Shown: positions 33,676 to 47,743, counted from the stretch's first letter. The stretch: 64,000 nt of DNA from a virus (IMGVR_UViG_3300032050_000061:24193-88192); one strand, 5' to 3'. Notes: a model not told the origin generated them from the sequence alone. Program-made: numbers and translations.

Positions 33676-33930
33676 TTATTCGTCTGTTGGTCTAAATTCT
33701 CCGGTTTCCAAATCTATTGTTCCATTACCATAAATTGATTTAAGTTTTTCAAATACTTCGGTTTCTTTCAATTTCAAAGATTCTAAACTCTGGTAATAGG
33801 CTAAACTCTCCCCTTCCAATTCGTTGATTTTTACCTGAATCAAACCGATGTTAGCATACAAAGTAGTGTATTCACTTCTGATTTGATTGATTTCTTGTAA
33901 CTCTTCTTGCGATAACTTTTTAACTTCCAT
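33676..33930 (-). CDS. Small coiled-coil protein
   Basis: 84 aa, helical, ending YGNGTIDLETGEF. Confidence 0.75.
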   Translation of the reverse strand: MEVKKLSQEELQEINQIRSEYTTLYANIGLIQVKINELEGESLAYYQSLESLKLKETEVFEKLKSIYGNGTIDLETGEFRPTDE

Positions 33931-34031: not shown

Positions 34032-35318
34032 TTATCCGTTTCCTGCTGAACCGAATGCCGTTTGTAATCCAGCGAAGTTTAACTTAGCCCTAGCATAGAT
34101 TGCAGTTCCACTTTTGTAATCGTATGTATTAGAACTATATGAAGATACGTTAGCTAAGACACTTCCAAATCCACTATCTGATGCAATTTGTATTTCATAA
34201 GAATAGTTCGCGGTAATTGCAGTTGAACCAGGTGAAGTTACTGCATTATTTGGGGAAAGAGTTAATCTTCTATAAGTTTCACCCCCAATAGTTACGGTTG
34301 ATACTGATACGGTTGGTGTGGTTGAAATAGAATACCCCGCAAATGAGTTTGCTCCCTTATTATGGGTTACGAATCCATTTACTATGTAAGTATCCACTTC
34401 TTCAACGTCTATTGAAACAACCTCTATTGTAGTGTTTTGAACGGTATTTGATACCACATTTACCTCTTCAATACTACCATCTAAATTTACTTTAATAAAT
34501 CTATCGTTTTCTTGAATTAATCCTAATGGTTTAAATTTGTAAACTTCTTCGTTTATATCAAAAACCATCATAGGGTGTTCACCATTTCCTTTCACCGAAC
34601 CGCTATCTGTTGTTACAATGTTCCATCTATCCACAAATGTATATGCCACATCTTTAACATATGAATCGACCATTATTCCACCTGCGGTATAATAAGTCCA
34701 ATCATAAAAGTTAAAATCGGTAAGGGTATCAACATGCGGTGGGTAGTAAGAACGAACTATATCACCCTCTACTAAATCACCCGCTTTCTTTGTCGTTCCA
34801 TCTGCCATTAAAACATCTTCATCTAAATGTAAACACAATCCACTCGCACCCGCATAATCATCTACATTATAAACAGTCTTATCTTTTACGGTATCATATC
34901 CTGTTGCGTGGTCATTAAATGTATCCCTAAATCTTACCGAAAGTGTTCTCGCAGTAGGTGCCGCCAAAGTAGACGAGTTTCCTATTCCATTCGCGGTTAC
35001 GGTTGGATTATATGGAGGATTTGCTTGAATTGAAAATTCTGCACCTACTGATAAAGACCAAGTAAAGTTATTAGTTACACTACCTATACGGCTTAAAAAA
35101 CGACTACCTGCATCAGTAAATCCTAATGTAAAAGTTTCACCGGTAGATTCTTTAACGTATGTAAATCCACTTATTGAATCAACCGAATCAATACCGAATT
35201 GTGACATTGCTATTGGTCCTGATGTAGTTCCTGCTGCAGAAGATAGTGAACTTGCAGCCGCTGCTGTTGCCACTTTAAGATTTCCTAATGAAAGGGTATT
35301 TCCATTTACTCTAGGCAT
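34032..35318 (-). CDS. Virion-associated protein with an internal Hint (intein-like) domain
   Basis: CLHLDEDVLMADG (block A), NGEHP (block B) and VVSIDVEEVDTYIVNGFVTHN (blocks F/G), followed by Lys. Confidence 0.85.
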   Translation of the reverse strand: MPRVNGNTLSLGNLKVATAAAASSLSSAAGTTSGPIAMSQFGIDSVDSISGFTYVKESTGETFTLGFTDAGSRFLSRIGSVTNNFTWSLSVGAEFSIQANPPYNPTVTANGIGNSSTLAAPTARTLSVRFRDTFNDHATGYDTVKDKTVYNVDDYAGASGLCLHLDEDVLMADGTTKKAGDLVEGDIVRSYYPPHVDTLTDFNFYDWTYYTAGGIMVDSYVKDVAYTFVDRWNIVTTDSGSVKGNGEHPMMVFDINEEVYKFKPLGLIQENDRFIKVNLDGSIEEVNVVSNTVQNTTIEVVSIDVEEVDTYIVNGFVTHNKGANSFAGYSISTTPTVSVSTVTIGGETYRRLTLSPNNAVTSPGSTAITANYSYEIQIASDSGFGSVLANVSSYSSNTYDYKSGTAIYARAKLNFAGLQTAFGSAGNG

Positions 35319-36324
35319 TGTATATATTTAATAATTTTGTTTTCCAATTTGTGCTATCACTAAACTTATTTATGAGTTGCGATTTTAAAGAATTGAACTC
35401 TTCAACTTTTTCCTCATAAGATAATTGTATGATACTCTTATAAATATTTACAAATTCTCTTTTACTATCAGCTCTGAATTTATAATTTATATCAACACAC
35501 CAATCCTCACTTAAAATAGGTAACTTTCCCCAATCCACATTCTGAAATATAGAATACCCAAATGGTTCAGCATTAAAAGCAGAGTGTGAAATTCCCCAAT
35601 CCATTTCATAATACCTATCACTATATTCGCTCTCAAATTGAATCTTTTTTAACTTCGAAAAATCTAAATCGTATTCCTTTTTCCAAGTTTTTTGAAAAGG
35701 TCTTATATTCGTAAACATAAAACCTTCTAATCCATCTAAATAATGTGGATTTTTTCTTACTTCACATCTTGAAGTAAATCCTATTTTATTTGAATTTGAT
35801 AACTCTTTATTTTGGATAAATTGGTAATAAGATGGTATCGAAACATATCCTTTAAACACATCTTCATGCAATTCATACAATCCTACCCACATTTTATTTT
35901 TAGCACCAACTAAAATTTTATTTTCCCATTCCTTCGAATAATGTGGTATCCAACCAAATTGTAAATCCGATAATCCACTTTGAACATAAACTTTAGATAA
36001 ATCATTATGAATTACATAACTCCATAATTTATCTAAATTTTCTTCTATTAATTCTAATGGTGTATAATGAGCATGTAGAATATTTAATCTTCTACATTCT
36101 CTAAATTTTTCTTCAAATATATCTTTATGATTCCCACTTTCATCGTTATACCAATAATGTTCTATCGGTATTTCAAAATTAAAATCAATTGGTTTGTTTC
36201 TATAAATAAGTAAAACCGGTTGAGTGTCTAAGTCTTTACTTATTTCACTCAACCAATTATTTACCCAAATATCTACTCCGGTATTGATTTTACCTATTCC
36301 TGTGGTAAAATATACATCAAACAT
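35311..36324 (-). CDS. GT-B fold (GT4-like) glycosyltransferase
   Basis: N-terminal TGV, ILHAH, IGFTSR...RKN and SAFNAEPFGYS...GKLPI. Confidence 0.75.
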   Translation of the reverse strand: MFDVYFTTGIGKINTGVDIWVNNWLSEISKDLDTQPVLLIYRNKPIDFNFEIPIEHYWYNDESGNHKDIFEEKFRECRRLNILHAHYTPLELIEENLDKLWSYVIHNDLSKVYVQSGLSDLQFGWIPHYSKEWENKILVGAKNKMWVGLYELHEDVFKGYVSIPSYYQFIQNKELSNSNKIGFTSRCEVRKNPHYLDGLEGFMFTNIRPFQKTWKKEYDLDFSKLKKIQFESEYSDRYYEMDWGISHSAFNAEPFGYSIFQNVDWGKLPILSEDWCVDINYKFRADSKREFVNIYKSIIQLSYEEKVEEFNSLKSQLINKFSDSTNWKTKLLNIYNA

Positions 36325-36327
36325 TTA

Positions 36328-39300
36328 TTATAAACCTTTTTGTTTCTTCAAATTTTCAATTTCAACTTTCATATCGTTGATTTGAATTTGCTGTTCTTTT
36401 ATACCTTCAATCAATAAAGCGACTAACTTATCATATTTAACTGCCTTATATCCACTTTCTCTTGTTTGAACTAATTGTGGTAATACTGCTTCAATTTCCT
36501 GTGCGATAACACCTACATCATTTCCTTCATAACCATGTTCTATTTTATTTTCCTCTTTCCAATCAAATGTGTTACCACTAATTCTATTAATTTTTTCTAA
36601 TGGATTTTCAATAGGTTTTATGTTATCTTTAAATCTCTTATCTGAAGATGAATAAGCCACAACATCGTTTGTTGCATCAATTCTACCAGCGGTAGCAGAT
36701 GCGGCCATCCCAACTCCTAATGAGTTAAACTGAACGTTTGATGAAGTTCCTACTGCTTGTCCAATTGAAATTGTTACGGCACCGGTTCCTGCGCTTACAC
36801 CAACTCCCGTCCCAGCTACTGCTGAAGTAACACCGGTATTTGTAATTGTTACTGCTCCGGTTGCACCACTTACTGAAATACCTGTTCCGGCAACATTAGA
36901 GGTTACACCCGCATTTGATAAAGTTACTGAACTTCCTAATGATACGGCTCCTCCACCACTTAATCCCGTTCCTGCGGTTACAGTCACCGAAGAGTTAGTA
37001 AGAGAACCATTACCTATATTTGAAAGTGTATTCGATGCTCCACTAATTGTTTTATTAGTAAGAACTTGTGCCCCAGTCAAAGTAGCAACAGTTGAATCGA
37101 TTGAAAGAGTTCTTGTTGTAGTTATATCACCCCCTCCTGTCAAACCTGTTCCTGCACTAATAGAAACCGCACTATGGTCAATGTGTCTATTCGCTTCATA
37201 TCCCGTTGTTGAGTTATGAGCCACTTGTGATGAACCACTAAATGCCCCAATCGCATTACCAATTGTTGCCGCAGTAATCGTTCCACCCAATGATGTTGAT
37301 TGCCCCGCGATTGTGATTGAGTTATTAGTTAATCCAATTGTAGGAGTTGCTCCCTCACCACTATTGTTTGAAAGAGTTATATTTGTTCCCGCTACCAAAC
37401 TTGCTACATAATCACCGGTTGTATCACTACCCAATGCTACTGAATTCGCTTGAATTGTCGCAACACCATTTGATGCAATTAAAACGTCACCACTAATTCC
37501 AGAGAAAACTTGTGAAGAACCTGATAACACATTATCAGCATTCAATTTAGTTTTTACTCTTGTATCAGTATAGTATTTGTTTGTTACACCTTCAACCAAA
37601 TCATCAGTATCTACCGATGGTAAAGTTGTTATTTGTGCTGAACCAGAGAATACACCTGTTCCACTTAATATAGTAGCCGCGGTTATACTTCCACCTAATG
37701 CAGTTGAATTTCCTGCTATTGTAATCGTATTGTTTGTGATTTGAGTACCATTGATTTGAGAAGAACCTGATACTAATGGTGTTACAGTTGAAACTATTGA
37801 TCCTGTTATCTCAGTATTTGAATTTATAGAAACTTTTGTTCCGGTATCACTAATATTACTATCTCCTAAATGTTCAGCGTTTACCGATTTTACTAATCTA
37901 TTTGTGGTAGGATATAATTCTGAACCTAAAGAATCGTATGATTGAGGCCCCATTAACAATACTGAAGAAGTAATTGATGCCCCAGCTACTGCCTGATGAA
38001 CATATATCCATTGGTCATTTATCGAATCAAATAATAATGAACCAGAAACTTGTGGTGATGACCCACTATCAATTACTGATAATCCACCAAAACGAATAGA
38101 TGGATTCAATGCATTTACTTTTACAATATTTGTCCCAACATTTAATTCAGATGAACTAATATTTTGAATTGAAGATGAACCTGCAACAACTAAATCTTGT
38201 GAAATATATAATGAACCGGTAATTACTTGATTACCCTGAAATATATTACTTCCGGTTGTTGCATAGCTTCCACTTACCCCTTCAATAGAATTTAATCTAC
38301 TATCTTGCGAAGCATTTGTTACAGCAACTGAACTACTTAATGCATTTGGTATAGCGGCAATAGATGAACTAAATGCTGAATACCCTGTTGTATTTGAAAT
38401 AGTTACTTGCGAAGAACCACTTATTACACTATCAGCATCTAATTTACTTTTAATAGTAGTGTTGATAGATGATGTGAATGAGTTTAATGAAGCAGTTGAG
38501 GTATGAATAGCACTAATATTTGTATTATTAGATGCGGTATATGAATTTAAACTTGCAGTTGAGGTATGAATCGCACTAATGTTTGTATTATTGGATGCGG
38601 TATATGAGTTCAACGAAGAAGTTGCAGTAAATAATAAAGTATTTCTACTATCCTGTGATGCAGTATAAGAATTCAAACTTCCACTTGCAGTTTCTAATGC
38701 ATTAATTCTCAAAGATTGACTATCGTTAGTTCCTGCATTAGAAGAAGTAAATGAATTAAAATCACTTCTTATACTTCCGCTCGCAGTTTCTAATGAACTT
38801 AATCTATTATTTTGTGTATTATTATTTGAATCATTAGATGCAGTATAAGTGTTTAAACTTCCCGTTGAAGTTTCCAAAGCATTTAATCTTACATTTTGTG
38901 CATTTTGTGCTATTTGTTGAGATGCAGTTGTGCTATTTACACTCGCTGAAAAACTTTCTAATCCATCTAATCTACCATTTTGTGATGTGTTAGTTGTATT
39001 GTTAGAAGATGTGTAAGTATTAAATTCATTTGCCAATACTAATCTGTCTTCGTTTCCAACTGCTCCTGCTTTCCAATAATCATTTGTAGTATCCCATAAT
39101 AAAGAACCTGATGTTGTTGTTCCACCAGTAGCATCTCTTACGATTATACCACCATTTGTAGCACCTGTTCCATTTAGGGAGATTATATTATCTCCTATGT
39201 CTACGGTTGTAGAGTTGATTGAAGTAGTTGTTCCCTTAACTAAAAGGTCTCCTTTCAATGTTACTGAAGAACCAGTAAATTCAATTGCATTTGCTACTGA

Positions 39301-40101
39301 TGAAGAAAAAGTTAATAGGCTACTACTAACACTTTCTAATGAACCTAACTTATTATTTTGAGTTGTATTAGTAGCATCGTTTGAAGCAGTATAAGTGTTT
39401 AAACTTGCTGTCGTAGCTTCGATTGCAGTTAATCTACTATTTTGAGTATTATTAGTTGTATTATTAGATGCGGTATAAGTGTTTAATGAAGAGGAATAAG
39501 TATGGAATGATTGTTCTAAACTTCCACTCTTTGTTTCTAATGAATTTACTCTTCCTATTAAAGAAGCAGTTGTAGTTTGAATACTATCTAATCTACTATT
39601 AACCGAAGAACTATATTGTTGAGCATTTCCCAATCCTGCAATTGTCGAACCACTTACTTCACCACTTACTTTAAAATCACCACTAGCATTTGATGTTAGA
39701 GTTCCAACAACTGTGTTTGTTCCTGGATTAACAATTTTGATTGAACCAGTTGAGATATAAAGGTCTCTCCACGCTTTTGTTTCACTACCTAAATCAAAAG
39801 TGTTTGTAAGCGATGGGATAATAGATGAGCTAAGGTTTGCATTTACCGCAACGGTATCCGAAGTTTGATCACCAATTGTGATGTTACCACCCAACGTTAA
39901 ATTACCATCGATTTTTGCATTTCCGGTAATGTCCAAAGATGAACCGGAAATTCCTTGTGACGATGAATTTATTAAGAGGGTTATATCACCATTATTACCT
40001 CCTATTTGTAAAGTTCCTAATGAGGTATTAACATATGGTTCTCCAAATGCTAATGAACCTGATTTATCTGCTGTTGAACCTCTTCTAAATTTAAGTGCCA
40101 T
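36328..40101 (-). CDS. Long tail fibre with C-terminal S74 intramolecular chaperone
   Basis: N-terminal KFRRG...GEP; Ser/Thr-rich heptad repeats; SSDKRFK...GVIAQEIEAVLPQLV...YDKLVALLIEGIKE. Confidence 0.9.
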   Translation of the reverse strand: MALKFRRGSTADKSGSLAFGEPYVNTSLGTLQIGGNNGDITLLINSSSQGISGSSLDITGNAKIDGNLTLGGNITIGDQTSDTVAVNANLSSSIIPSLTNTFDLGSETKAWRDLYISTGSIKIVNPGTNTVVGTLTSNASGDFKVSGEVSGSTIAGLGNAQQYSSSVNSRLDSIQTTTASLIGRVNSLETKSGSLEQSFHTYSSSLNTYTASNNTTNNTQNSRLTAIEATTASLNTYTASNDATNTTQNNKLGSLESVSSSLLTFSSSVANAIEFTGSSVTLKGDLLVKGTTTSINSTTVDIGDNIISLNGTGATNGGIIVRDATGGTTTSGSLLWDTTNDYWKAGAVGNEDRLVLANEFNTYTSSNNTTNTSQNGRLDGLESFSASVNSTTASQQIAQNAQNVRLNALETSTGSLNTYTASNDSNNNTQNNRLSSLETASGSIRSDFNSFTSSNAGTNDSQSLRINALETASGSLNSYTASQDSRNTLLFTATSSLNSYTASNNTNISAIHTSTASLNSYTASNNTNISAIHTSTASLNSFTSSINTTIKSKLDADSVISGSSQVTISNTTGYSAFSSSIAAIPNALSSSVAVTNASQDSRLNSIEGVSGSYATTGSNIFQGNQVITGSLYISQDLVVAGSSSIQNISSSELNVGTNIVKVNALNPSIRFGGLSVIDSGSSPQVSGSLLFDSINDQWIYVHQAVAGASITSSVLLMGPQSYDSLGSELYPTTNRLVKSVNAEHLGDSNISDTGTKVSINSNTEITGSIVSTVTPLVSGSSQINGTQITNNTITIAGNSTALGGSITAATILSGTGVFSGSAQITTLPSVDTDDLVEGVTNKYYTDTRVKTKLNADNVLSGSSQVFSGISGDVLIASNGVATIQANSVALGSDTTGDYVASLVAGTNITLSNNSGEGATPTIGLTNNSITIAGQSTSLGGTITAATIGNAIGAFSGSSQVAHNSTTGYEANRHIDHSAVSISAGTGLTGGGDITTTRTLSIDSTVATLTGAQVLTNKTISGASNTLSNIGNGSLTNSSVTVTAGTGLSGGGAVSLGSSVTLSNAGVTSNVAGTGISVSGATGAVTITNTGVTSAVAGTGVGVSAGTGAVTISIGQAVGTSSNVQFNSLGVGMAASATAGRIDATNDVVAYSSSDKRFKDNIKPIENPLEKINRISGNTFDWKEENKIEHGYEGNDVGVIAQEIEAVLPQLVQTRESGYKAVKYDKLVALLIEGIKEQQIQINDMKVEIENLKKQKGL
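38492..38613. repeat. 63-bp tandem repeat encoding SLNSYTASNNTNISAIHTSTA, two copies
   Basis: Near-identical direct repeat in both DNA and protein. Confidence 0.85.
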
Positions 40102-44188: not shown

Positions 44189-47100
44189 TTACTCTCCTGC
44201 TTCCAATTTACTAATTCTCTCCTCCAATTTTTCAATTGTATTTTGTTGCTCTTTGATTGCTTCTATTAGGAGTGCAGTAAGTTTATCGTATTTAACAGCC
44301 TTGTATCCACTTTCTCTCGTAGTAACCAATTCTGGTACAACCGCTTCAATTTCTTGTGCGATTACACCTACATCATGCCCTTCGTATCCATGTTCAATAT
44401 TTGGAATCCAATCAAATTCATATCCTCCAATTTGTTTCACTTTTTGGATAGGAGAACCTATTTGAATTATATTAGTTTTAAATCTTTTATCTGATGAAGA
44501 GTATGCAACTATATCATTTGTAGCATCTATTCTTCCTGGAGTAGCAGATGCAGCCATCCCAACACCCAATGAATTAAATCTAACATCGGAAGTAGTTAAT
44601 AGAGATTGATTTATATATGTACCAAATCCTGTGGTAGATGCTAAAGTAATTTGTGATGAACCACTAACCACACTCTCCGCATCTAATCTCGTCTTAATTG
44701 TTGTATTAATAGAAGATGTAAATGAATTTAAACTCGCGGTTGCGGTATTGAGAGCAGAAAGATTTGAATTATTAGATGCCGTATATGCATTTAAACTACT
44801 TGTTGAAGTATGAATTGCATTAATATTTGTTGTATTAGATGCAGTATAAGAATTCAAACTCGCAGTTGTCGAATGAATCGCATTTAAATTTAAGGTAAAT
44901 GATGAAGTAAATGTATTCAAACTTGCAGTAGCAGTATGAATAGCATTTATGTTCAATATATTTGATGAAGTATATGCACTCAAATTACTAATTACACCAT
45001 TGTTTGATGATGTATAAGAATTCAAACTATTCAATGTAGAATTGATTGAATTTATATTAGCTGTATTAGATGCAGTATAAGAATTTAAACTTTCAGTTGT
45101 GGAATAAATTGAGTTAATTTTTCCATCATTAGAAGAAGTATATGAATTTAAAGTTCCTCTTAATGATGTTACATCAGCATCCGATGCAAAAACCGCATCC
45201 AATGATGAAGTAAATGATTCTAATGCATTTAATCTATTATTTTGTGCGGTATTTGTGGAATCATTAGATGCGGTGTAAGAATTTAAACTACTTGTTGCAG
45301 TATAAATTGAACCAATCTTACTATCGTTAGAAGATGTGTATGTGTTCAACGTTCCTCTTAATGAAGTAACATCAGCATCAGTTGCATAAGTTGCATCTAA
45401 TGATGATGTAAATGATTCTAATGCGCTTAACCTACCATCTGCAGATGATGTATATGAATTTACTGAACTAGTGTGGGTGTGTAAAGAGTGAGTATAACTT
45501 TCAAAAGTAAATGCATCTAAAAATCCTGTTCCCGCTACGAAAGTGTTGATTCTAGCATTAAACGATGCGGAAATTTGAGATAATGATGATGTAAGTTGAG
45601 ATGATGATACAAATAAACTTGCAGTTGCAACATTTAAAGAAGCAGTTGTCGCTTCTAACGAAATTAATCTTCCATTATGAGAAGCGGTTGTTGAATTTAC
45701 TGATGATGTAAATGAATGTAAAGAACCGGTATATGTTCCAAATTCTACTTCAGATACAAAAACGGTATCCAAAGATGAACTGAAACTTTCTAAATTACCA
45801 ACTCTTGTGTTAAAAGAAGAACTTGCAACATTGAATGATGAAGTATGTGTATTAAAATCACTTCTAATACTTCCACTTTCAGTTTCTAATGATGTCAATC
45901 TTGTATTCGCAGATGATGTATATGCGTTGTAAGTTGTTCTTACGCTACCGCTTTCAACTTCTAATGAGTTTAACCTACTATTTTGAGTTGTATTAGTAGC
46001 ATCATTTGAAGCAGTATAAGTGTTTAAACTCCCTGTTGAAGTTTCAATTGCATCTAATCTACTATTTTGAGTGGTATTTGTTGTGTTATTAGATGCAGTA
46101 TAAGAATTTATAGAACTACTGTAAGAATGAAAACTTGCACTTTGTATTTCTAAATTTACTCCTCTACTATTAATAGATGAACTAAAAGTATTATACTGTG
46201 TTTCTAAAATTATTCTTTCTTCTGCACCTGCAATACCTGCTATCCAATAATCGTTTGCAGTATCCCAAAGTATAGATCCTGAATTAATTGAACCACCTGA
46301 TGCATCTCTTATAATTAAGCCACCATTTGATGCAGCACTACCATTAAGTGAAATTATATTATCACCGATATCTACTGTTGTAGAATTTACAGTAGTTGTA
46401 ACACCCTTAACTAAAAGGTTTCCTTTAATTGTTACCGCAGAACCAGTTAATTCAATTGCATCTTTTAAAGAAGATGTGTAAGAATTTACAGACGATGTAA
46501 ATGTATTTATTATAGAACCAGTTGCAATAACCGATGCACTAAATGAATTTAGTGATGCGGTTGCAATATGAATACTTTGACTTGCATTATTTAATGGGTC
46601 TAATATACTAATTATTTGAGATGAACCTGATATTACTCCGTTTGTTGAGTGTATAGAAGCAGTTACGCCACCCAATACAATTAGAGAACCTGTGATTTCG
46701 GCATTATCTTTAACAAAAAGATTATTATCAATTGTTAGAGTTGAATCATATAATCGAGTATCCGTATAAATGTATAAGTTCCTATTGAGAAAATTTTCAA
46801 CATTGAATATAGGATAATCTGTACCATTTCGCTTGAAATAAGTATAAATTCCAGCTTCCCAAACCTTTACTTTTAATGAATGTTCATCATTAGTAGAATT
46901 ATTATCATATTTTAATTCTAGATTTACACCATCTGCTTGAGTGTGATCAAAAGTTAAAGAACTGGTTACAGCTCCACTTCCAGTCACAACATTAAATTCA
47001 CCCGCAGATATTGATAAAGATCCTGTAATTTTTTGATTTCCTATAAAATTGTTACTTCCCGTTGTTGCGTATGAACCACTTACACCTTCTATACTATTTA

Positions 47101-47743
47101 ATCTATTATTGACACTTTGTGTATGAGTATTAATTATTGAATTTATAGTATTTTGAGAGGATGTATATGAATTTAAACTTCCACTAGCAGTTTCTAAATT
47201 ATTTAATCTATTATTTTGAGTTGTATTAGTAGCATCATTAGAAGCAGTATATGAATACAAACTCGAAGTTGCTCCATTTAAACTTGCCAATGATGAGGAA
47301 ATATGGGTTACATTTCCTAAATTTTCAATATGAACAATAGATGCACTATTGACAAATAATTTATTCCATTTTTTATTAGAAGCACCAACATCGTAAATAC
47401 TATCTTGATCTGGTGTTAATGAACCGCTTAAAGTTGCAATAAGATTTACAACATCAGATGTTTGGTCACCAATCTTTATATTACCACTAACAAAAACATT
47501 TCCAGCAAAATAAGCGTTAGATGCAGTTAAATCTCCTGTTATGGATAATGAACCCGAGTTTGCCAAAGAACCACTCCATTTAGAAGATGAAGTTTTACCA
47601 GTATTTAATTTAACCAAAGTTATTTCTTCACTACCACTAGCACCAAAAACTATACTTTGGCTATCAGCATTTAAGTATGGTTCTCCATACCCTAGTGTCC
47701 CTTTAGCACTACTACCACCTCTTCTTATTTGGAAAGTTGCCAT
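44189..47743 (-). CDS. Second long tail fibre with C-terminal S74 chaperone (paralog of 36328-40101)
   Basis: N-terminal QIRRG...GEPY; SLNSYTASN repeats; SSDKRFK...YDKLTALLIEAIKE. Confidence 0.9.
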   Translation of the reverse strand: MATFQIRRGGSSAKGTLGYGEPYLNADSQSIVFGASGSEEITLVKLNTGKTSSSKWSGSLANSGSLSITGDLTASNAYFAGNVFVSGNIKIGDQTSDVVNLIATLSGSLTPDQDSIYDVGASNKKWNKLFVNSASIVHIENLGNVTHISSSLASLNGATSSLYSYTASNDATNTTQNNRLNNLETASGSLNSYTSSQNTINSIINTHTQSVNNRLNSIEGVSGSYATTGSNNFIGNQKITGSLSISAGEFNVVTGSGAVTSSLTFDHTQADGVNLELKYDNNSTNDEHSLKVKVWEAGIYTYFKRNGTDYPIFNVENFLNRNLYIYTDTRLYDSTLTIDNNLFVKDNAEITGSLIVLGGVTASIHSTNGVISGSSQIISILDPLNNASQSIHIATASLNSFSASVIATGSIINTFTSSVNSYTSSLKDAIELTGSAVTIKGNLLVKGVTTTVNSTTVDIGDNIISLNGSAASNGGLIIRDASGGSINSGSILWDTANDYWIAGIAGAEERIILETQYNTFSSSINSRGVNLEIQSASFHSYSSSINSYTASNNTTNTTQNSRLDAIETSTGSLNTYTASNDATNTTQNSRLNSLEVESGSVRTTYNAYTSSANTRLTSLETESGSIRSDFNTHTSSFNVASSSFNTRVGNLESFSSSLDTVFVSEVEFGTYTGSLHSFTSSVNSTTASHNGRLISLEATTASLNVATASLFVSSSQLTSSLSQISASFNARINTFVAGTGFLDAFTFESYTHSLHTHTSSVNSYTSSADGRLSALESFTSSLDATYATDADVTSLRGTLNTYTSSNDSKIGSIYTATSSLNSYTASNDSTNTAQNNRLNALESFTSSLDAVFASDADVTSLRGTLNSYTSSNDGKINSIYSTTESLNSYTASNTANINSINSTLNSLNSYTSSNNGVISNLSAYTSSNILNINAIHTATASLNTFTSSFTLNLNAIHSTTASLNSYTASNTTNINAIHTSTSSLNAYTASNNSNLSALNTATASLNSFTSSINTTIKTRLDAESVVSGSSQITLASTTGFGTYINQSLLTTSDVRFNSLGVGMAASATPGRIDATNDIVAYSSSDKRFKTNIIQIGSPIQKVKQIGGYEFDWIPNIEHGYEGHDVGVIAQEIEAVVPELVTTRESGYKAVKYDKLTALLIEAIKEQQNTIEKLEERISKLEAGE

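Follow-up and report, generated by a model that had tools for sequence, protein, structure and literature searches.

Known Hint domains include selfish inteins, the processing domains of Hedgehog proteins, and the BIL and pre-toxin modules of bacteria. What is such a domain doing in a viral protein encoded between tail fibres and the tail sheath, and is it a parasite of the gene or a working part of its product? The question is raised by a gene on the minus strand of a 64,000-nucleotide stretch of viral DNA (IMGVR_UViG_3300032050_000061:24193-88192; hereafter, the window), which belongs to an 88-kb IMG/VR record estimated to be 46% complete. A first-pass annotation, made from the sequence alone, had described the product as a tail-fibre-associated protein carrying a non-splicing Hint domain. 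The features needed for the analysis are as follows, with positions counted from the first letter of the window.

34032..35318, minus strand: whole Hint gene, 428 amino acids plus stop
35190..35318, minus strand: residues 1–43, N-terminal segment of three short helices (predicted models)
34848..35189, minus strand: residues 44–157, putative Ig-like beta-sandwich (domain model and weak fold matches)
34836..34847, minus strand: residues 158–161, N-junction linker, the last residue of which is Leu161 (position -1; homologue alignment)
34359..34835, minus strand: residues 162–320, Hint domain of the mini-intein/BIL type, 159 amino acids (fold and profile matches)
34833..34835, minus strand: codon of Cys162, the first Hint residue (162/162 homologues)
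34575..34577, minus strand: codon of His248, the block-B histidine, in an invariant E-H-P (162/162)
34359..34364, minus strand: codons of His319 and Asn320, the C-terminal His-Asn (162/162 each)
34338..34358, minus strand: residues 321–327, Lys321 (+1) and the conserved K-G-x-N-S linker (homologue alignment)
34035..34337, minus strand: residues 328–428, FN3 domain (Z 9.3–10.5 to FN3 domains)
35311..36324, minus strand: 337-amino-acid gene, probable GT-B-fold glycosyltransferase (locus linkage and language-model clusters)

The layout described in the first-pass annotation was reproduced closely. The Hint span proposed there (34359–34835) coincides exactly with residues 162–320, and the motifs CLHLDEDVLMADG, NGEHP, and VTHN, the last followed by Lys, were all found in the 428-residue protein. 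The single codons, checked against the sequence, lie at 34362–34364 (His319), 34359–34361 (Asn320), and 34356–34358 (Lys321), and Cys162 is the sole cysteine of the protein. The flanks, which had been called rich in Ser, Thr, and Gly, contain 35% and 40% of these residues, versus 20% in the Hint. The gene had also been placed two genes downstream of an S74 tail fibre, and it is indeed the second gene after a 1257-amino-acid fibre whose C-terminal domain is Peptidase_S74 (E 8.5e-17); the 337-amino-acid gene lies between them, and its stop codon is overlapped by the ATG of the Hint gene by 8 nt.

The domain itself is real, with a clear Hint fold in the predicted structure. An AlphaFold2 model of the protein, built on 30 homologues (pLDDT 82), was compared with solved structures using VIA-align, and the Hint portion matched Tetrahymena BIL2 (6tmm; Z 19.9, rmsd 1.9 over 142 residues), a BIL domain of C. 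thermocellum (2lwy; Z 19.1, rmsd 1.5 over 134), the Hedgehog domain Hh-C (1at0; Z 18.9), and many mini-inteins (Z 16–18.6). Foldseek matched it to Hint structures at E values from 2e-9 to 1e-7, the best being BIL2. Residues 162–320 of the model run from the first to the last residue of the matched Hint domains, within alignments that span 157–327. Inteins and BILs of known structure were also reached with a profile of the family (E 1e-4 to 3e-3). In the resulting alignments, Cys162 fell on the corresponding residue of the solved inteins, His248 of the E-H-P motif on their block-B (T-x-x-H) histidine, and the final His-Asn on that of the inteins and BILs. The first reading had also called for a search against Hint models, and here the outcome was divided: the curated models missed the window protein, whereas the family profile and the fold comparison reached Hints and BILs. 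Pfam, PHROGs, and NCBIfam gave only sub-threshold matches to the window protein, including Intein_splicing in Pfam (E 0.56), intein_Nterm in NCBIfam (17.2 bits at residues 162–201, against a cut-off of 24.5), and intein_Cterm in NCBIfam (residues 303–320); PT-HINT (PF07591, gathering threshold 27.7 bits) did not match it at E values up to 1. Among 30 relatives, 15 had a PT-HINT or Intein_splicing match at E up to 0.01, nearly all of them below Pfam's cut-off, with PT-HINT scores of 27.4 bits in P0064 and 28.6 bits in P0145.

A word-indexed search retrieved 115 homologues, all of 413–446 amino acids, and relatives were encoded on 299 IMG/VR contigs. Among 162 distinct full-length homologues, with identities down to about 35%, Cys162, His248, His319, Asn320, and Lys321 were each invariant and Leu161 was present in 161, while the positions neighbouring the catalytic residues varied freely. 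The lysine that had been noted at +1 is thus a constant of the family, and in the linker that it opens, the glycine was kept in 160 and the asparagine in 159 of the 162. All Hint copies were 150–159 amino acids long and none carried an endonuclease, which bears out what was said of the window copy. Mean pairwise identity was 0.56 in the N-terminal part, 0.53 in the Hint, and 0.43 in the C-terminal FN3 part, and the divergence of the three parts was correlated (r 0.86–0.92), as is expected for any vertically inherited insert. When loci were retrieved through the neighbouring 337-amino-acid gene, and hence independently of the Hint, all 80 held the N-Hint-FN3 gene, so that the search for Hint-less orthologues or a sporadic distribution, which the first reading had proposed as a check, yielded no Hint-less allele. 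Canonical (class 1) inteins have Cys, Ser, or Thr at +1, their occurrence is sporadic, with intein-less alleles, and they often carry a homing endonuclease; here, the +1 residue was Lys in 162/162 homologues, and a Hint of near-constant length was present at 80/80 loci. Because the catalytic residues are invariant, the Hint has diverged as its flanks have, no endonuclease is present, and every one of the 80 loci is occupied, these alignments support the view that the Hint is a fixed, domesticated, non-canonical domain and not a selfish intein; the word "domesticated" in the first-pass annotation therefore seems well chosen.

All family members are metagenomic, and their source annotation is "hypothetical protein". 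Searches of 50,697 phage genomes with tblastn gave no match to the whole protein, and hence no cultured phage with the gene, and only chance-level intein matches to the Hint alone (E 0.1–0.6). In the genomes of 185,579 prokaryote species, there was a single partial match, at the end of a contig of a metagenome-assembled genome (MAG). This partial relative, in a gammaproteobacterial MAG (L163, JBMZNW010000042.1), covers residues 260–336 at 47% identity and is probably phage DNA binned with the MAG, not a reliable clue to the host.

Type-A BIL domains were reportedly described by Amitai in 2003 and by Dassa in 2004, and the phage Hint is closest to these and to the PT-HINT domains (PF07591). It shares with them the Hint fold, the N-terminal Cys, the block-B His, the C-terminal His-Asn, the lack of both a +1 nucleophile and an endonuclease, and a variable domain after the Hint. 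It differs from them in its invariant +1 lysine, in its pairing with a glycosyltransferase (GT)-like gene, and in reaching no curated threshold; moreover, the phage Hint is fixed in a conserved gene, whereas BILs are found in bacteria, in the hypervariable portions of secreted proteins or toxins. Cys1 and a C-terminal His-Asn with no +1 nucleophile define the type-A BILs (PMC4031507), and the phage Hint has all of these. The best structural match, BIL2 from the BUBL1 locus of Tetrahymena thermophila (6tmm, 6y75), is only 18% identical to it, is eukaryotic, and has ubiquitin-like flanks instead of Ig-like and FN3 ones; a zinc-dependent switch has been described for BIL2. The Hedgehog Hog domain has the same fold and uses a Cys N-S acyl shift to release or transfer its N-terminal domain, but it lacks His-Asn and has a sterol-recognition region, whereas the phage Hint has an invariant His-Asn-Lys and then an FN3 domain. 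Class 1 mini-inteins (NpuDnaB, gp41-1) resemble it in fold, size, Cys1, block-B His, and His-Asn, but the phage domain lacks Cys, Ser, or Thr at +1, is not sporadic, and does not occupy a conserved site of a host protein. The Peptidase_S74 chaperone of the fibre two genes upstream is likewise a self-cleaving module in a phage tail-region protein, and in relatives, Hint caps take the C-terminal position that S74 holds on the window fibre; the fold and chemistry are unrelated, however, S74 being a Ser-Lys dyad protease and the Hint predicted to act through a Cys thioester and Asn cyclisation. In the papers found by our literature searches, canonical inteins are reported from phage terminase genes and others like them; none deals with a Hint in a tail or fibre protein of a phage, and none describes the N-Hint-FN3 phage family. 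What is new here is a BIL-type Hint, of predicted activity, that is fixed in a phage tail-module protein, bears a characteristic lysine, and has a GT-like neighbour dedicated to it.

What the Hint separates is less specific than had been supposed. Residues 1–157, modelled alone, gave a pLDDT of 88.9, with short helices over the first 40 or so residues and then an Ig-like sandwich. The best matches of this sandwich were the Ig-like domain of T5 pb6 (Z 7.4) and that of lambda gpV (Z 6.5), both weak and generic, and its BFVD matches were to BIG2, PKD, and decoration proteins (TM 0.35–0.46); the fold search gave generic Ig-like matches only, none reaching Z 8, and assigned the N-domain no specific virion role. 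Residues 328–428 matched FN3 domains with Z values of 9.3–10.5, and Pfam fn3 matched 11 of 30 relatives (best E 6e-6). In these models, the flanks are decoration-type modules, without features of a fibre or a tip. The "fibre-tip or adhesin domain" that the first reading had envisaged as cargo therefore finds no support in this form, the matches being to generic Ig-like domains (weak, Z 6–7) and, at Z about 10, to FN3 domains. A polymorphic-toxin reading was also considered and rejected, the C-terminal domains of the relatives being FN3 or lectin-like and not toxin domains.

An exhaustive search combined with custom domain HMMs extended the comparison to wider relatives. No part of the N-module is shared more widely than the N-terminal segment (residues 1–43); this segment carries the motif G-x-T-L-S-L-x-x-L-x-x-A, in which G6, L11, L14, and A17 are invariant, and is common to Hint-less proteins too. 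The N-module occurred in three architectures: followed by the Hint and then by FN3, Laminin_G_3, or Gly-rich domains; followed by a Hint that stops 1–9 residues past His-Asn (hereafter, caps); and fused directly to other domains without a Hint (P0217, P0221, P0230). Related Hints also cap unrelated fibre-like proteins, such as P0205, in which Collar, Gp10_C, and PKD domains precede a Hint whose His-Asn-Lys stands directly before the stop. In a phylogenetic tree, the Hints of the N-Hint-FN3/LamG group formed one supported clade (98/92), and the other N-family Hints were scattered among the caps. Among 99 Hints outside the N-family, the +1 residue was Lys in 75 and Cys, Ser, or Thr in none; where the tail was a single residue, it was Lys in all six cases, and nearly all of the short tails without Lys at +1 held one further on. 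His-Asn-Lys was still kept in the cap-type relatives with 1–9 residues after His-Asn. The 7–9-residue tails of the cap-type relatives consist of the motif K-G-x-x-S/D, which is of the same type as the linker in the window. By these alignments, the +1 lysine is a hallmark of a wider, phage-borne Hint clade.

Some members of this wider set had other unusual arrangements. Seven proteins of about 800–1100 amino acids (P0169, P0173, P0181, P0188, P0204, P0220, and P0241) contained three or four tandem Hints linked by His-Asn-Lys-Gly-Gly-(Gly)-Cys-Phe, placing the +1 Lys 3–4 residues before the next Cys1; P0169 also had a Tim44-like C-terminal domain. In the Hint-less proteins P0217, P0221 (L180:7001-7795), P0230, P0161, and P0189, the N-module was joined straight to Cys-rich or other distal domains.

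The second constant of the locus is the 337-amino-acid neighbour. In the window, the Hint gene is followed by an 84-amino-acid gene, the tail sheath, the tube, a 253-amino-acid gene, and an 805-amino-acid tape-measure-like gene, and the order fibres, 337-amino-acid gene, Hint gene, 84-amino-acid gene, sheath, and tube recurred in 16 loci, with identities as low as about 36%. GT-like genes of the 337-amino-acid type were recorded on 534 contigs. More widely, a Hint-bearing ORF adjoined a gene of the 337-amino-acid type in 104 of 104 loci (80/80, 23/23, and 1/1), down to about 31% identity, and this pairing held in differing wider gene contexts. The 23 loci form a distant clade, in which the homologue of the 337-amino-acid protein is 31–38% identical and an N-Hint cap gene lies directly downstream in every case; in 15 of them, a second Hint-capped ORF stands immediately upstream, and in this clade the sheath does not adjoin the pair. 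The single further locus (L330, LR756508.1 124867-133880) is in the 484-kb genome of an uncultured phage, an unannotated record and the only one in the phage genome collection with this 337-amino-acid family; its Hint-capped ORF ends 77 nt before the homologue. Since all 104 loci hold an adjoining Hint-bearing ORF, we infer from this gene order that the two genes are functionally linked. At one Hint-less N-module gene (L180), which directly follows an S74 fibre, no homologue of the 337-amino-acid gene was found within 7 kb (n = 1). A predicted complex of the 337-amino-acid protein with the Hint protein scored 0.22, against a mark of 0.32, which speaks neither for nor against contact between the two.

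The 337-amino-acid protein had no Pfam, PHROG, or PDB sequence match, the profile of its family found nothing among PDB sequences, and Pfam found nothing consistent over the family members. In a language-model atlas, its ten best named clusters, which include AGT, Glycos_transf_1, and GT4, all belonged to the GT-B clan (0.96–0.97, with 168–190 shared features), and by this language-model similarity the protein is probably a GT-B-fold glycosyltransferase.

Several smaller features of the region were recorded. In L263–L268 and L274–L281 (e.g., L264:2974-5671), which belong to the distant clade, the GT-like gene lies between two Hint-capped ORFs, the upstream one being an ORF of another kind and the downstream one an N-module plus Hint. 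The window sheath is nearest to the sheaths of Microcystis phage Mel-JY01 and the Flavobacterium "immuto" phages; in these cultured phages, the block of 84-amino-acid gene, sheath, and tube is kept and the GT-Hint pair is absent. The 84-amino-acid gene just upstream of the sheath (33676-33930, minus strand) is coiled-coil-like, and it is this gene that Mel-JY01 and the immuto phages retain. Two long fibre genes (36328-40101 and 44189-47743, both minus strand) have repeat segments in common, as well as a C-terminal region of the S74 type, and two to four such fibres stand upstream of the GT-Hint pair in relatives. Around the Hint gene, no terminator-like sites were found, and promoter-like sites did not exceed what shuffled sequence would give.

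Taken as a whole, we assign a probability of roughly 0.7 to the reading that an accessory protein of the tail module carries the Hint as a permanent autoprocessing module, of the type-A BIL/PT-HINT kind, the membership of this protein in the virion being suggested by the position of its gene. The Hint belongs to the fixed core of this protein throughout a large clade of uncultured freshwater and marine myoviruses. From the conservation of its residues, it is very probable that the domain is active. By an N-S acyl shift aided by His248, Cys162 would then attack the carbonyl of Leu161 and form a thioester; Asn320, aided by His319, would cyclise and cut the Asn320–Lys321 bond; and the thioester at Leu161 would be resolved as the last step. 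The upstream GT-like protein may work with the Hint module. With Lys at +1, canonical transfer cannot take place, since it needs a Cys, Ser, or Thr side chain. Type-A BILs form an N-terminal thioester and cleave at their C-terminus by Asn cyclisation (PMC4031507); ligation can follow if the thioester is attacked by the freed amine, but most of the products are those of cleavage (PMC4031507, PMC7664689). In Tetrahymena BIL2, the thioester is resolved by a lysine epsilon-amine, giving an isopeptide bond, and a ubiquitin-like domain is thereby conjugated to lysines of other proteins (PMC8616854).

If the phage domain is active, three outcomes present themselves. The amine of Lys321 may take the N-terminal part, so that the Hint is expelled while an isopeptide or peptide bond keeps the Ig-like and FN3 domains together, an outcome whose chances we put somewhat short of even; plain cleavage into separate pieces would be nearly as plausible; and transfer to some other, outside acceptor seems a poor prospect. 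Were the lysine the acceptor, virion maturation would include a natural ATP-independent isopeptide or peptide ligation, of which the ciliate BUBL system is the one earlier natural case, and which might serve as a small tool for protein ligation. In its most complete form, this idea becomes lysine-directed splicing, in which the N-terminal part passes to the Lys321 epsilon-amine (in caps, to the lysine of the tiny tail), the Hint is discarded, and the GT-B-like protein is a partner, the two genes forming a maturation cassette. The complete scheme seems rather unlikely to us; if true, it would be an undescribed maturation cassette for phage tail and fibre proteins, spread across hundreds of uncultured phages.

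The tails of the caps carry most of the information on the lysine, and they do not all point the same way. Because His-Asn and the lysine are kept where almost nothing follows them, which is hard to explain by N-terminal cleavage alone, the comparison points to a chemical role for the conserved lysine, as a nucleophile or as a catalytic base. With a tail of a single Lys, ligation to that residue would achieve little, which favours a catalytic or structural role. The same tails bear on the strongest competing account, in which the Hint only cuts one or both junctions, the thioester is hydrolysed, the Ig-like and FN3 domains (or a Hint-FN3 piece) are released, and Lys321 merely tunes catalysis. 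Characterised BIL domains yield mainly cleavage products (PMC7664689, PMC4031507), and relatives that consist of the N-domain and Hint with almost nothing past His-Asn-Lys suggest a reaction concerned mainly with the C-terminus of the N-part; the domain after the Hint also varies (FN3, Laminin_G_3, or Gly-rich), as in PT-HINT pre-toxins, which release their C-terminal part. However, cleavage alone leaves the His-Asn and Lys of caps with 1–9-residue tails unexplained, given that Hedgehog Hints, which cleave only at the N-terminal side, lack His-Asn, and the N-modules fused directly to a distal domain suggest a mature form composed of these two parts. We regard cleavage alone as possible but doubtful.

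A thioester at Leu161 might instead be attacked from outside, by a lysine of another virion protein or by a glycan or small molecule supplied through the GT-like protein, so that the Ig-like part becomes tethered. There are precedents for such transfer, Hedgehog passing its N-terminal part to cholesterol and BIL2 acting on lysines of other proteins, and the GT-like gene, adjacent at 104/104 loci and absent beside the one Hint-less N-module gene (n = 1), could be read in the same way. Such covalent attachment does not by itself account for the conserved His-Asn-Lys, however, and the GT assignment comes from language-model similarity only; we consider it quite improbable. Still less probable is an unreactive Hint that merely separates two Ig-type domains. 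As a compact beta domain it could serve as a spacer, but a spacer would hardly need every residue for both junction reactions in 162/162 homologues amid freely varying neighbours, nor would the only cysteine of the protein be the catalytic one.

A selfish or decaying mini-intein, suggested by the size, the intact Cys1, block B, and His-Asn, and the frequency of inteins in phage genes, can hardly be credited for a domain with Lys at +1 throughout, no endonuclease, and no Hint-less allele in 80 loci, which sits in a linker between independent domains instead of inside a conserved active site and has not diverged faster than its flanks. Four public runs, three of them RNA libraries and one of DNA, gave no contig that skipped the Hint either, which is weak evidence since rare variants are lost from contigs. 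Parts of the gene, both Hint junctions included, were covered by contigs of the three metatranscriptome libraries, and these too are weak evidence because RNA libraries can hold DNA. Near-identical DNA was present in lake and freshwater metagenomes from at least nine studies.
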